DNA of 18,281 nt, taken from IMG/VR virus record IMGVR_UViG_2690316166_000012, one strand, 5' to 3'. This document shows, piece after piece, positions 10,576-18,281 of this stretch. The stretch's first letter is position 1, and each line of letters opens with the position of its first letter. The stretch is from a virus. Lineage: Duplodnaviria > Heunggongvirae > Uroviricota > Caudoviricetes. The notes beneath the pieces are model-generated. The model saw only the letters and a list, made by a program, of their open reading frames with translations. It was not told the DNA's origin and searched no databases. A program made the position numbers and the translations under genes.

Positions 10576-11439
10576 NNNNNNNNNNNNNNNNNNNNNNNNN
10601 NNNNNNNNNNNNNNNNNNNNNNNNNNNNNNNNNNNNNNNNNNNNNNNNNNNNNNNNNNNNNNNNNNNNNNNNNNNNNNNNNNNNNNNNNNNNNNNNNNNN
10701 NNNNNNNNNNNNNNNNNNNNNNNNNNNNNNNNNNNNNNNNNNNNNNNNNNNNNNNNNNNNNNNNNNNNNNNNNNNNNNNNNNNNNNNNNNNNNNNNNNNN
10801 NNNNNNNNNNNNNNNNNNNNNNNNNNNNNNNNNNNNNNNNNNNNNNNNNNNNNNNNNNNNNNNNNNNNNNNNNNNNNNNNNNNNNNNNNNNNNNNNNNNN
10901 NNNNNNNNNNNNNNNNNNNNNNNNNNNNNNNNNNNNNNNNNNNNNNNNNNNNNNNNNNNNNNNNNNNNNNNNNNNNNNNNNNNNNNNNNNNNNNNNNNNN
11001 NNNNNNNNNNNNNNNNNNNNNNNNNNNNNNNNNNNNNNNNNNNNNNNNNNNNNNNNNNNNNNNNNNNNNNNNNNNNNNNNNNNNNNNNNNNNNNNNNNNN
11101 NNNNNNNNNNNNNNNNNNNNNNNNNNNNNNNNNNNNNNNNNNNNNNNNNNNNNNNNNNNNNNNNNNNNNNNNNNNNNNNNNNNNNNNNNNNNNNNNNNNN
11201 NNNNNNNNNNNNNNNNNNNNNNNNNNNNNNNNNNNNNNNNNNNNNNNNNNNNNNNNNNNNNNNNNNNNNNNNNNNNNNNNNNNNNNNNNNNNNNNNNNNN
11301 NNNNNNNNNNNNNNNNNNNNNNNNNNNNNNNNNNNNNNNNNNNNNNNNNNNNNNNNNNNNNNNNNNNNNNNNNNNNNNNNNNNNNNNNTTCAGCCATACC
11401 CGCCTCCGGTCATCATTACACAGGGCAAGTTTAAAATAA

Positions 11440-11463
11440 AAATCCCGCGCTGTGGCGGGATTT
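11440..11463 (-). terminator. Rho-independent terminator (minus strand)
   Basis: Perfect 9-bp stem aaatcccgc / gcgggattt with 6-nt loop (plus 11440-11463). On the minus strand it is followed by a T-run (TTATTTTAAAC), then GGAGG and an ATG at 11397 (MAE...) starting the next gene, which runs into the mask. Confidence 0.5.
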
Positions 11464-12836
11464 GGNNNNNNNNNNNNNNNNNNNNNNNNNNNNNNNNNNN
11501 NNNNNNNNNNNNNNNNNNNNNNNNNNNNNNNNNNNNNNNNNNNNNNNNNNNNNNNNNNNNNNNNNNNNNNNNNNNNNNNNNNNNNNNNNNNNNNNNNNNN
11601 NNNNNNNNNNNNNNNNNNNNNNNNNNNNNNNNNNNNNNNNNNNNNNNNNNNNNNNNNNNNNNNNNNNNNNNNNNNNNNNNNNNNNNNNNNNNNNNNNNNN
11701 NNNNNNNNNNNNNNNNNNNNNNNNNNNNNNNNNNNNNNNNNNNNNNNNNNNNNNNNNNNNNNNNNNNNNNNNNNNNNNNNNNNNNNNNNNNNNNNNNNNN
11801 NNNNNNNNNNNNNNNNNNNNNNNNNNNNNNNNNNNNNNNNNNNNNNNNNNNNNNNNNNNNNNNNNNNNNNNNNNNNNNNNNNNNNNNNNNNNNNNNNNNN
11901 NNNNNNNNNNNNNNNNNNNNNNNNNNNNNNNNNNNNNNNNNNNNNNNNNNNNNNNNNNNNNNNNNNNNNNNNNNNNNNNNNNNNNNNNNNNNNNNNNNNN
12001 NNNNNNNNNNNNNNNNNNNNNNNNNNNNNNNNNNNNNNNNNNNNNNNNNNNNNNNNNNNNNNNNNNNNNNNNNNNNNNNNNNNNNNNNNNNNNNNNNNNN
12101 NNNNNNNNNNNNNNNNNNNNNNNNNNNNNNNNNNNNNNNNNNNNNNNNNNNNNNNNNNNNNNNNNNNNNNNNNNNNNNNNNNNNNNNNNNNNNNNNNNNN
12201 NNNNNNNNNNNNNNNNNNNNNNNNNNNNNNNNNNNNNNNNNNNNNNNNNNNNNNNNNNNNNNNNNNNNNNNNNNNNNNNNNNNNNNNNNNNNNNNNNNNN
12301 NNNNNNNNNNNNNNNNNNNNNNNNNNNNNNNNNNNNNNNNNNNNNNNNNNNNNNNNNNNNNNNNNNNNNNNNNNNNNNNNNNNNNNNNNNNNNNNNNNNN
12401 NNNNNNNNNNNNNNNNNNNNNNNNNNNNNNNNNNNNNNNNNNNNNNNNNNNNNNNNNNNNNNNNNNNNNNNNNNNNNNNNNNNNNNNNNNNNNNNNNNNN
12501 NNNNNNNNNNNNNNNNNNNNNNNNNNNNNNNNNNNNNNNNNNNNNNNNNNNNNNNNNNNNNNNNNNNNNNNNNNNNNNNNNNNNNNNNNNNNNNNNNNNN
12601 NNNNNNNNNNNNNNNNNNNNNNNNNNNNNNNNNNNNNNNNNNNNNNNNNNNNNNNNNNNNNNNNNNNNNNNNNNNNNNNNNNNNNNNNNNNNNNNNNNNN
12701 NNNNNNNNNNNNNNNNNNNNNNNNNNNNNNNNNNNNNNNNNNNNNNNNNNNNNNNNNNNNNNNNNNNNNNNNNNNNNNNNNNNNNNNNNNNNNNNNNNNN
12801 NNNNNNNNNNNNNNNNNNNNNNNNNNNNNNNNNNNN

Positions 12837-15420: not shown

Positions 15421-15765
15421 TTATTCCTCCGTCAGCGCCACATATTCAGAATGTTTAATTTCCTGGCATTCTTCAGGAATACATCCGTTTATTTCCCTGC
15501 CATAAGCGCCCACTTTAAACACCACGCACAGGGCATCACGGGAGAACGAAGGGGTCCACCAGGAGTCCGTGTTAAACATGGAGGGGATTCTCATTACCCC
15601 CAGCTTTTCACAGAGCCAGACAAGGAAATCAGGACGCTTTCTTAACTCGCGTTCAGCGGCTTCAATCATTGCGGCAATCGCCGGTCCTTCAGGGCATGAC
15701 TCATCAGGTCTGGCTATAAAGCACTGTCCGCCACCGATAAAAGCCACATCATCGCGCTTACGCCA
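15421..15765 (-). CDS. Hypothetical protein, C-terminal part (gene immediately downstream of gam); 5' end masked
   Basis: Protein-like frame ..WRKRDDVAFIGGGQCFIARPDESCPEGPAIAAMIEAAERELRKRPDFLVWLCEKLGVMRIPSMFNTDSWWTPSFSRDALCVVFKVGAYGREINGCIPEECQEIKHSEYVALTEE, stop at 15421-15423. The same frame has ATGs at 16260 and 16239 overlapping the gam 3' end, so it may be up to about 270 aa. Confidence 0.4.
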   Translation of the reverse strand, partial: WRKRDDVAFIGGGQCFIARPDESCPEGPAIAAMIEAAERELRKRPDFLVWLCEKLGVMRIPSMFNTDSWWTPSFSRDALCVVFKVGAYGREINGCIPEECQEIKHSEYVALTEE

Positions 15766-16225
15766 NNNNNNNNNNNNNNNNNNNNNNNNNNNNNNNNNNN
15801 NNNNNNNNNNNNNNNNNNNNNNNNNNNNNNNNNNNNNNNNNNNNNNNNNNNNNNNNNNNNNNNNNNNNNNNNNNNNNNNNNNNNNNNNNNNNNNNNNNNN
15901 NNNNNNNNNNNNNNNNNNNNNNNNNNNNNNNNNNNNNNNNNNNNNNNNNNNNNNNNNNNNNNNNNNNNNNNNNNNNNNNNNNNNNNNNNNNNNNNNNNNN
16001 NNNNNNNNNNNNNNNNNNNNNNNNNNNNNNNNNNNNNNNNNNNNNNNNNNNNNNNNNNNNNNNNNNNNNNNNNNNNNNNNNNNNNNNNNNNNNNNNNNNN
16101 NNNNNNNNNNNNNNNNNNNNNNNNNNNNNNNNNNNNNNNNNNNNNNNNNNNNNNNNNNNNNNNNNNNNNNNNNNNNNNNNNNNNNNNNNNNNNNNNNNNN
16201 NNNNNNNNNNNNNNNNNNNNNNNNN

Positions 16226-16750
16226 NNNNNNNNNNNCATCCTGTTCAAAAGGCTCGACATAAAAACTTTCAGCGCCTTTATTCACCTTTATACCGGCAAT
16301 GCCTTTCACCGCATCCGGCTCCGCCAGGACGGCTTCCTTGTTCACTTCCTCTTTCGTGCGGATGAATCGCTCAAGCCCCATACGGCGCAGCGTGTCAATC
16401 ACACCTTCCACATCACGGCTGACGCTGCATGATGGCGTTCCCAGCCGCCATGACACCGTTCCGGTGGTCAGATTGGCAGTTTTGGTTTTGCCGCCGTTCG
16501 TCAGCTCATCACGGTTGGTTTTACACCAGTCCTGAATCCCTTTAAAAAGCACTTTGATTTGCTTTTTAAGATTTTCAATCTGCGGCGTATAACGGGCGGT
16601 GATTTCTGCCACTTCATCATTCATCGCCGTTTCCAGGCGCAGCGCCTCTCGCTGAATATCGCCCAGGGTGCGGATATCGCGGCTGACTTCTTCGCGGGTC
16701 TGCGGTGCGGCCTCGGCTACAGCCTTTAATTTTGTAACGCGTTTTGCCAT
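16226..16750 (-). CDS. gam: Host-nuclease inhibitor protein Gam (Mu Gam family)
   Basis: ATG at 16750 with AAGGA upstream. MAKRVTKLKAVAEAAPQTREEVSRDIRTLGDIQREALRLETAMNDEVAEITARY...ANRDELTNGGKTKTANLTTGTVSWRL...RFIRTKEEVNKEAVLAEPDAVKGIAGIKVNKG...PFEQ closely parallels Mu Gam as I recall it. About 171 codons are visible; the 3' end (16226 is an estimate) lies just inside mask 15766-16236. Confidence 0.85.
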
Positions 16751-16761
16751 TTTGTTTTTCC

Positions 16762-17055
16762 TTATTGCAATGTATCTGGTGCGTTCTGCAAGGAGCGGCG
16801 CTCAATGCTGCTTTTCACCCCCAGAGCCTGCATGGAACCCTGAAGTTCATCTGTCAGAAACTGAATAATTGTGGGGCTGTGATATTTAAGAATTTGCGCA
16901 TAAACATCACATGGGCCTGTCGGTCTGTTCTCCGTATCACGTTCGATTTTTACAGTGGCAGTAACCCCCTCCGTGATTTCCTGACTATCATTACCGGCTG
17001 GCTTTACTTCATGCATTACGTGGTTAAATTCAAAAATAACGCGTACTTTGCTCAT
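16762..17055 (-). CDS. Hypothetical small protein, downstream member of a tandem paralog pair
   Basis: ATG at 17055 (MSKVRVIFEFNHVMHEVKPAGND...), 4 nt after the upstream paralog's stop. Shares the N-terminal motif MSKV-x-(V/H)-I-(I)-FE-(F/Y) with the upstream gene. Lower GC. Confidence 0.45.
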   Translation of the reverse strand: MSKVRVIFEFNHVMHEVKPAGNDSQEITEGVTATVKIERDTENRPTGPCDVYAQILKYHSPTIIQFLTDELQGSMQALGVKSSIERRSLQNAPDTLQ

Positions 17056-17059
17056 GGAA

Positions 17060-17332
17060 TTACCCCTGCTGATTAAATTCATTACCGTTAATAACCCCGG
17101 AAGCCATGCCCCTGTCTTTCATGAATGCACTGGCTTTCATTGCCACAAGCTCTGCGAAGTTTCTGCTTTCCGCGAGCATAACCCCCCCAAAAATCATGGC
17201 GGGTCCATCACCTTTCTGCTTTATCCCGGTTGAACGTATGTCCAGACTTACCCCCATGCGCACTGTTCCATCAGCGTTTTTATGGATAACGTGCTCCTTA
17301 TATTCGAAAATAATGTGTACGACTTTACTCAT
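17060..17332 (-). CDS. Hypothetical small protein, upstream member of a tandem paralog pair
   Basis: ATG at 17332 overlaps the upstream stop (ATGA). MSKVVHIIFEYKEHVIHKNADGTVRMGVSLDIRSTGIKQKGDGPAMIFGGVMLAESRNFAELVAMKASAFMKDRGMASGVINGNEFNQQG. Confidence 0.45.
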   Translation of the reverse strand: MSKVVHIIFEYKEHVIHKNADGTVRMGVSLDIRSTGIKQKGDGPAMIFGGVMLAESRNFAELVAMKASAFMKDRGMASGVINGNEFNQQG

Positions 17333-17627
17333 CCTCTGGTCCTCGTTCTGTTTGGATAACTGACCCGGCGTCTGACCTCACGGCAGAACCGAATCATGGC
17401 ATTAAAGGCTTCTTCCTCCGTCACCGCTTCCGGTATCCCCGGAACCAGTAACTGCTCCTGTTCATCACGTCCATGACGCGCCATAACCTCAATCACATGC
17501 CGTACCGTGGCAGGCTTTCCGGCAACTATCGGCAATGCACCTTCCGGCAGGACGTAACCAAACTCAATAAGACCACTCGACCACGCCCATGCAATGAGAT
17601 TTTTTTTCACCTCACACCTCCCAGTAA
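17329..17627 (-). CDS. Hypothetical protein, C-terminal part; 5' end masked
   Basis: Protein-like frame (..KKNLIAWAWSSGLIEFGYVLPEGALPIVAGKPATVRHVIEVMARHGRDEQEQLLVPGIPEAVTEEEAFNAMIRFCREVRRRVSYPNRTRTRG) with stop at 17329-17331 overlapping the next start. Confidence 0.4.
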
Positions 17628-18141
17628 NNNNNNNNNNNNNNNNNNNNNNNNNNNNNNNNNNNNNNNNNNNNNNNNNNNNNNNNNNNNNNNNNNNNNNNNN
17701 NNNNNNNNNNNNNNNNNNNNNNNNNNNNNNNNNNNNNNNNNNNNNNNNNNNNNNNNNNNNNNNNNNNNNNNNNNNNNNNNNNNNNNNNNNNNNNNNNNNN
17801 NNNNNNNNNNNNNNNNNNNNNNNNNNNNNNNNNNNNNNNNNNNNNNNNNNNNNNNNNNNNNNNNNNNNNNNNNNNNNNNNNNNNNNNNNNNNNNNNNNNN
17901 NNNNNNNNNNNNNNNNNNNNNNNNNNNNNNNNNNNNNNNNNNNNNNNNNNNNNNNNNNNNNNNNNNNNNNNNNNNNNNNNNNNNNNNNNNNNNNNNNNNN
18001 NNNNNNNNNNNNNNNNNNNNNNNNNNNNNNNNNNNNNNNNNNNNNNNNNNNNNNNNNNNNNNNNNNNNNNNNNNNNNNNNNNNNNNNNNNNNNNNNNNNN
18101 NNNNNNNNNNNNNNNNNNNNNNNNNNNNNNNNNNNNNNNNN

Positions 18142-18273
18142 TCGTGTGCGGTCATTAAATTCAAAAAGTAAATCGCCACATTCTTTATTTTCGGCCAGTG
18201 AAATCACCTTCACGTTATCGAAATTAACCAGGTAAAAGCGTCCGTAAATATCAGGAATATTAAATACCGCCAT
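18142..18273 (-). CDS. Hypothetical protein, N-terminal part only
   Basis: ATG at 18273 (a GTG two codons upstream is the ORF-track start); MAVFNIPDIYGRFYLVNFDNVKVISLAENKECGDLLFEFNDRTR then mask. AT-rich. Whether it is continuous with the ORF ending at 17329 cannot be seen. Confidence 0.3.
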
Positions 18274-18281
18274 AATCACAC

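Follow-up and report, generated by a model that had tools for sequence, protein, structure and literature searches.

Here we analysed two small adjacent genes, A and B, in the early region of a Mu-like Escherichia coli prophage carried by an 18,281-nucleotide (nt) stretch of viral DNA (IMG/VR record IMGVR_UViG_2690316166_000012; this whole stretch is called the window below). The two are tandem duplicates from a single small family of early-operon genes in Mu-like transposable phages, and profile comparisons suggest that gp7 of phage Mu, also named Gnarl2, is a remote member of it. The pair adds a member to a barely studied family with a single named member, rather than representing a new kind of system. 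By analogy with Gnarl2, we tentatively suggest that A and B bind host proteins stoichiometrically, with the synthesis of O-antigen or lipopolysaccharide (LPS) as the best single guess for their target.

A and B are true paralogues. A begins MSKVVHIIFEY and B begins MSKVRVIFEF, and the N-terminal motif that the original prediction saw in both exceeds chance in two shuffling analyses, though BLASTP of A against B reported nothing. The Smith-Waterman score between the two proteins was 54, against 23.2±4.1 with a maximum of 49 in 5000 shuffles (z about 7.5). Aligning the A family with the B family by hhalign gave 81.7% probability and an E-value of 1.1e-5 over 79 columns, with a score of 33.3 against 11.1±2.2 (maximum 18.3) in 200 column shuffles. 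The shared residues are encoded by different synonymous codons (AGT/AGC for Ser, TTC/TTT for Phe), so the constraint acts on the protein. When the first 17-18 residues were left out, the profile score was 15.7 against a null of 10.0±2.5 (maximum 20.4), which is not significant; the detectable sequence signal between A and B therefore essentially corresponds to the motif. The alignment is nevertheless co-linear over about 79 columns, and three landmarks are aligned across all subfamilies: the hairpin-turn Gly, the Gly-Pro ahead of the helix and the Gly that follows it. The claim that the two proteins diverge completely beyond the motif thus nearly holds for the sequence signal and fails for these landmarks and for the predicted fold. 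One E. coli genome carries a 67-aa in-frame A/B hybrid protein (P0061) that joins A-type residues 1-49 to the last 18 B-type residues. Its junction lies at an ‘FG’ common to both paralogues, and the hybrid therefore reflects a deletion or recombination between them. Frameshifted variants of B were also seen (P0051, P0052, P0068 and P0069).

The AlphaFold model of A (predicted local distance difference test score, pLDDT, 79) has strands at residues 6-18 and 24-35 and a long helix at 44-73, and that of B (pLDDT 77) has strands at 4-21 and 24-39, a helix at 48-77 and a disordered tail. The predicted β-β-α order, a β-hairpin plus a helix, is identical in A and B, but the models used one combined alignment and are not independent evidence of the same fold. 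The long β-hairpin is predicted to pack on the single long helix, with the motif M-[SA]-K-V-x-V-I-F-E-[FY] as its first strand. For both models the top structural match is a designed C2 homodimer, and this shape may pair through its exposed hairpin. Both proteins are predicted to be soluble, about 10 kDa each, and without enzyme-like features. A membrane protein is ruled out, since 19-residue hydropathy peaks at 1.0 and neither protein has a membrane segment. A carries a net charge of +1.8 and B one of −3.2; neither is strongly acidic, which rules out a DNA mimic of the Ocr/ArdA anti-restriction type. No DNA-binding motif was detected in A or B, and neither matches the family model of Mu Gam (PF07352) or of any other known nuclease inhibitor. 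A, B and Mu gp7 were all without a hit in searches of Pfam, NCBIfam, PADLOC and PDB sequences.

We next consider the wider family, for which there is no Pfam or NCBIfam model. A matches PHROG 4107 and B matches PHROG 2230 (E 4e-37), the latter also holding the ‘Mup07’ allele of phages PhiR68_1 and Mu_3F6. Word-indexed protein searches returned close E. coli relatives only. An exhaustive profile search of 1.84 billion representatives recovered 31 proteins at E≤1e-3, nearly all of 84-100 aa and with the same start; one of the 31 is a spurious repeat protein. Scans of genome representatives gave one Citrobacter braakii locus from one scan and nothing from another. The start M-[SA]-K-(0-3 residues)-V-I-[FI]-[ET]-[FIY] is seen in all subfamilies, and named sources of members include Yersinia and Cronobacter.

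The genomic place of the family is also conserved. Among the contigs of six distant members, four place the gene in a Mu-like early region with kil ahead of it and gam immediately behind, one has it between kil and a DUF3164 gene, and one is a short contig on which only the downstream DUF3164 gene is visible. The C. braakii member follows a kil-like open reading frame (ORF) and precedes an ORF judged DUF3164-like by eye. In every Mu-like locus showing both flanks, the family gene lies between kil and gam (or DUF3164). PHROGs 4107, 2230 and 10252 are thereby joined as one small superfamily at a fixed place in Mu-like early operons. A divergent A-type member (P0057) again precedes a 97-aa B-type gene, and the other distant members are single. 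A, the divergent paralogue, looks like a lineage-specific duplicate, found in Escherichia only.

In the reference Mu genome, the same slot is filled by Mup07 (gp7, formerly E6; NP_050611.1, UniProt GP7_BPMU, PHROG 10252), an 87-aa protein with a MAKVIIEI start and a C-terminal His. Comparing A or B with Mu gp7 by tblastn found nothing. B gave a faint tblastn match to the gene between Mup06 and Mup08 of PhiR68_1 and Mu_3F6, whose 89-aa product (MAKVIFEF...) is a clear member of PHROG 2230. Gp7 itself matches PHROG 2230 over its full length (E 0.009). A profile of the whole family against a profile of gp7 relatives gave 89% probability and an E-value of 2.2e-6 over 75 columns, with a score of 35.2 against 9.7±1.8 in shuffles. 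B is thus tied to gp7 through PHROG 2230. From these comparisons, Mu gp7 appears to be a remote member of the A/B family; the assignment is highly probable for B and much less firm for A, whose sole tie to the family of gp7 runs through B.

Like A and B, Mu gp7 is encoded by an early-operon gene between kil and gam, is of similar size and has no known domain, and its MAKVI-E start and C-terminal His resemble those of many family members. Unlike the window, Mu has one copy rather than two, and gp8 and gp9 lie between gp7 and gam. The PHROG 2230 ‘Mup07’ allele resembles B in its position, its motif, the Gly-Pro helix cap and the post-helix Gly; it differs in being single-copy and only about 29% identical to B. 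Yersinia and Cronobacter hold relatives of this allele. In clustering at 90% identity, Mu gp7 falls in a cluster represented by the 139-aa Mu gp8. This is probably a clustering artefact, perhaps from a read-through gp7-gp8 member.

Mup07 (NP_050611.1) was named ‘gnarl2’ in two papers from one group (PMC12373910, by Silas and co-workers; bioRxiv 10.1101/2023.04.06.535777). A functional screen scored Gnarl2 as a host-sensitising ‘counter-defence’ accessory gene, and in the wild E. coli strains ECOR1 and ECOR22 it shifted the O-antigen ladder downwards and raised T5 infection 1e5-1e6-fold (PMC12373910). This O-antigen phenotype is reported for Mu gp7 and not for A or B, and Gnarl2 is the sole superfamily member with an experimental phenotype. 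A literature search found no later work on Gnarl2, and searches for the older genetics of the Mu semi-essential early region yielded nothing usable. Functional analogies can be drawn with Gnarl3, a GalU-binding small phage protein, and with Iap of Pseudomonas phage D3, a small inhibitor of the O-antigen polymerase, both being small non-enzymatic O-antigen changers that bind host enzymes (PMC12373910). Unlike A and B, these come from different phages and gene contexts, and they are likened by described function, not by sequence.

A and B are both real protein-coding genes, as the original prediction took them to be. The ratio of non-synonymous to synonymous substitution rates (dN/dS) is 0.30 for A (19 distinct alleles) and 0.35 for B (20 alleles), and the sense frame has the lowest value among all six frames. 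For gam the ratio is 0.09 (19 alleles), and for the 93-aa gene upstream of A it is 0.12-0.13 (10 alleles). A and B are therefore under purifying selection, with amino-acid change three to four times faster than in their neighbours. The pair is also conserved across loci: B is directly next in 38/38 of the IMG/VR loci whose sequence passes A (the remaining three of 41 A-bearing loci are cut off or frameshifted), and directly follows A in three loci from other sources. The A+B pair is matched in 232 of 5,426 complete E. coli genomes, and the match covers at least 80% of the pair in 226 of these. Most of the listed serotyped carriers are O157:H7, O111 or O103, and several more have strain names of Shiga-toxin-producing E. 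coli (STEC). In public data the exact A protein is found on 135 contigs and the exact B protein on 714, always unnamed. At codon 50 of A (window 17183-17185), the window has Gly where nearly all relatives, including strain JKHS016 (NZ_CP147059.1), have Val; this Gly-50 variant is nevertheless the one found exactly on the 135 contigs.

B has two allele classes with about 60% amino acid identity and about 70% nt identity. A alleles are 84-92% identical and combine with either B class. In a sliding comparison, the divergent block runs from about B codon 16 to the last codons, with flanks that are 83-100% identical; the body of B is thus exchanged as a cassette, with the conserved motif at its left edge. 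The contents of the slot vary as well: strain M1 has B alone, L036 has A+B but lacks the 93-aa gene, and the window has all three. The second B class is found in several serogroups, and no strict link between B class and O-serotype is visible from strain names. Fast evolution, a variable slot in the Mu early region and a relative in Gnarl2 agree with the diversifying host-interaction or anti-defence family that was first proposed, whereas anti-defence activity of A and B themselves is something we infer. A second hypervariable slot holds the 180-aa gene after gam (L003 7987-8529; approximately 15580-16122 in the window, where it is partly masked). Its alleles are very divergent, so that prophages which are alike elsewhere have 35-60% nt identity here when compared in 60-nt windows.

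In the explanation that we favour, A and B would be expressed during lytic growth, from the early promoter, and would bind or inhibit host proteins stoichiometrically. Because of the remote homology to Gnarl2, O-antigen/LPS biosynthesis would be the likeliest target pathway, and the surface of the infected cell would be altered. The conserved strand would form the core of the fold or of a dimer, with target specificity set by the variable hairpin tip, helix face and tail. Two copies, one basic and one acidic, together with the B allele classes, would extend the action to a wider range of host variants. We regard host-protein binding with this target as the best guess available rather than as one that we would call probable. 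A more elaborate version is improbable. Here A and B would be halves of a hypervariable, non-enzymatic pair forming a ‘seroconversion’ device, in which the N-terminal strand makes homo- or heterodimers and swapped hairpin and helix surfaces retarget the pair to strain-variable envelope-biosynthesis enzymes. If so, Mu-like phages would carry a family of diversifying binders that follows the diversity of O-antigens.

Several points weigh against the envelope explanation and the homology behind it. Mu early genes are repressed in lysogens, so a surface change would occur only in lytic growth. The similarity of A and B outside the motif is not significant alone, and the shared alignment limits what their matching models can add. 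Compared with gp7, the A family alone gives an E-value of 0.27, which is no match, and identity with Gnarl2 reaches only about 19%. Strains of O157, O111 and O103 share one B class, with no simple match between allele and serotype. For Gnarl2, no direct target is reported and pull-downs gave no clear pattern, and its phenotype comes from over-expression in foreign strains (PMC12373910). That phenotype could be a side effect.

A different target was considered for the pair, namely that A and B, together with Gam or DUF3164, target host nucleases or DNA-end-sensing defence instead of the envelope. We consider this unlikely. In its favour, gam or DUF3164 immediately follows the family gene in the window and in all related loci examined other than Mu and PhiR68_1. 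The gene before A is also labelled ‘host nuclease inhibitor’ in PHROG, and A and B evolve fast, as counter-defence genes would be expected to. In Mu itself, however, gp8 and gp9 separate gp7 from gam, which speaks against a functional tie to the neighbouring Gam. A and B have neither similarity to known nuclease inhibitors nor the strong negative charge of a DNA mimic, and the sole experimental datum for a relative, that for Gnarl2, points to O-antigen. Nor is the neighbour quite what it was taken for. The pair does adjoin gam, and this gene is of the Mu type (Pfam Phage_Mu_Gam, PF07352, E 1.8e-39). Mu Gam is a Ku-like binder of DNA ends rather than a direct inhibitor of RecBCD like lambda Gam.

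The remaining alternatives concern the architecture of the pair. If only residues 1-18 were common to A and B, these could be a short N-terminal module, either an adaptor or a protein-level recombination joint, attached to unrelated, exchangeable C-terminal effectors. The non-significant profile score beyond the motif, the B allele-class switch that begins right after it and the in-frame P0061 hybrid would all suit such an arrangement. We nonetheless find it somewhat less likely still than a nuclease target, given the co-linearity over about 79 columns, the matching turn Gly, Gly-Pro helix cap and post-helix Gly, and the one small fold predicted for both proteins, albeit from one shared alignment. 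The shared N-terminal module with unrelated C-termini of the original prediction is therefore not the best fit. Basic A and acidic B could instead form an obligate heterodimer that regulates phage development, for example in the historical semi-essential functions for replication level or immunity. A never occurs without B in the 41 A-bearing loci (38 from IMG/VR and three from other sources) that include the downstream sequence, their fixed spacing suggests coupled translation, and their opposite net charges and the resemblance of the fold to one chain of a designed C2 dimer are in keeping with pairing. Such a role is doubtful, as B-type genes stand alone in many prophages, the free combination of A alleles with either B class argues against close co-adaptation, and no DNA-binding motif was detected. 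Least probable by far is that the genes are a toxin-antitoxin-like pair, spurious ORFs or a misreading of a gene on the opposite strand. They are small and adjacent with products of opposite charge, but paralogy is unlike toxin-antitoxin partners and no toxin or antitoxin domain was found in A or B, so a type II pair was rejected. As for the opposite strand, an 85-aa antisense ORF over A (window 17106-17363, plus strand) is open in 18/19 alleles with a dN/dS of 0.33. It was rejected as most likely an artefact, since its frame shares wobble positions with the sense gene, which has the lower dN/dS, it is truncated in the divergent A orthologue, its counterpart over B is broken in most alleles, and homology among the subfamilies is in the sense frame only.

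With the superfamily assembled, a hypothetical gene pair common in Mu-like prophages of pathogenic E. coli (O157:H7, O111, O103) is now tied to Gnarl2. If A or B remodel O-antigen, prophage induction in STEC strains would alter surface antigens and phage susceptibility, and the natural allele series (A, the two B classes and the Mu gp7 types) would be a ready set for finding the Gnarl2 target. If they have no effect on O-antigen, the pair would be an ordinary case of fast-evolving phage accessory genes.

The window covers the early and middle region of the prophage, with genes on the minus strand, and is about 100% identical to JKHS016 across its unmasked parts. The order in JKHS016 is Mu transposase, MuB-like ATPase, a 73-aa gene, a kil-like 84-aa gene, the 93-aa gene, the 90-aa and 97-aa genes, Gam, gp11/gp12-like genes, GemA, Mor and lysis genes; MuB, 73 aa, kil-like, 93 aa, A, B and gam follow one another in the window and in locus L003. 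Direct reading of the minus strand for the ORFs and their junctions confirmed two neighbouring ORFs, 4 nt apart (Table 1). The spacer TTCC occupies 17059-17056, between the A stop and the B ATG, and a Shine-Dalgarno-like AGGGG lies 8-12 nt ahead of the B ATG. On the other side, the ATG of A shares ATGA with the TGA of the 93-aa gene, where the junction reads ..AGAGGATGAGT.., and 11 nt (GGAAAAACAAA) separate the TAA of B from the ATG of gam. The predicted stop/start overlap of A with its preceding gene is thus real, but that gene is the 93-aa one; the 316-aa ORF at 17329..18279 is spurious, produced by a masking run of N. No sigma-70-like promoter or intrinsic terminator was found within 16600-17620, so the genes are read as one operon, with A and B transcriptionally in line and tightly packed between the 93-aa gene and gam. 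An alternative B start at 17082 would give 106 aa; the start giving 97 aa is supported by the family-wide MSKV/MAKV start and by RefSeq, which lists both coding sequences as hypothetical proteins.

Table 1 Features in and around the A/B pair, with positions in the window.
Feature	Position	Strand	Length	Description
ORF A	17060-17332	-	90 aa	ATG at 17332, TAA at 17062-17060; PHROG 4107; isoelectric point 9.2
ORF B	16762-17055	-	97 aa	ATG at 17055, TAA at 16764-16762; PHROG 2230; isoelectric point 5.5
A N-terminal strand motif	17279..17332	-		codons 1-18 (MSKVVHIIFEYKEHVIHK)
B N-terminal motif	17005..17055	-		codons 1-17 (MSKVRVIFEFNHVMHEV); left edge of the allele-class replacement
A-B junction	17056..17067	-		AGGGG inside the end of A, A stop TAA, 4-nt spacer TTCC
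Mu-type gam	16220..16750	-	176 aa in near-identical genome	end coordinate inferred from locus L003
93-aa gene upstream of A	17329..17610	-	93 aa	GTG start; PHROG 1518, labelled ‘host nuclease inhibitor’

The 93-aa gene has no Pfam match. It is present in some related prophages and absent from others, including some E. coli prophages that keep A+B. In C. braakii, its homologue (L071 3232-3504) is also ATGA-coupled to the single family gene.

Runs of N mask the window at 17629-18141 and at about 15640-16237. The latter hides the last few codons of gam, and a 330-aa ORF (15758..16750) is artificial, created by the N run. The first run, of 513 nt, stands for about 340 nt of the near-identical genome; the masks are therefore not length-preserving, or the source differs there. 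Just before gemA, L003 carries a DUF2513 gene (11095-11505) on the strand opposite to the phage early and middle genes, which may be a moron.
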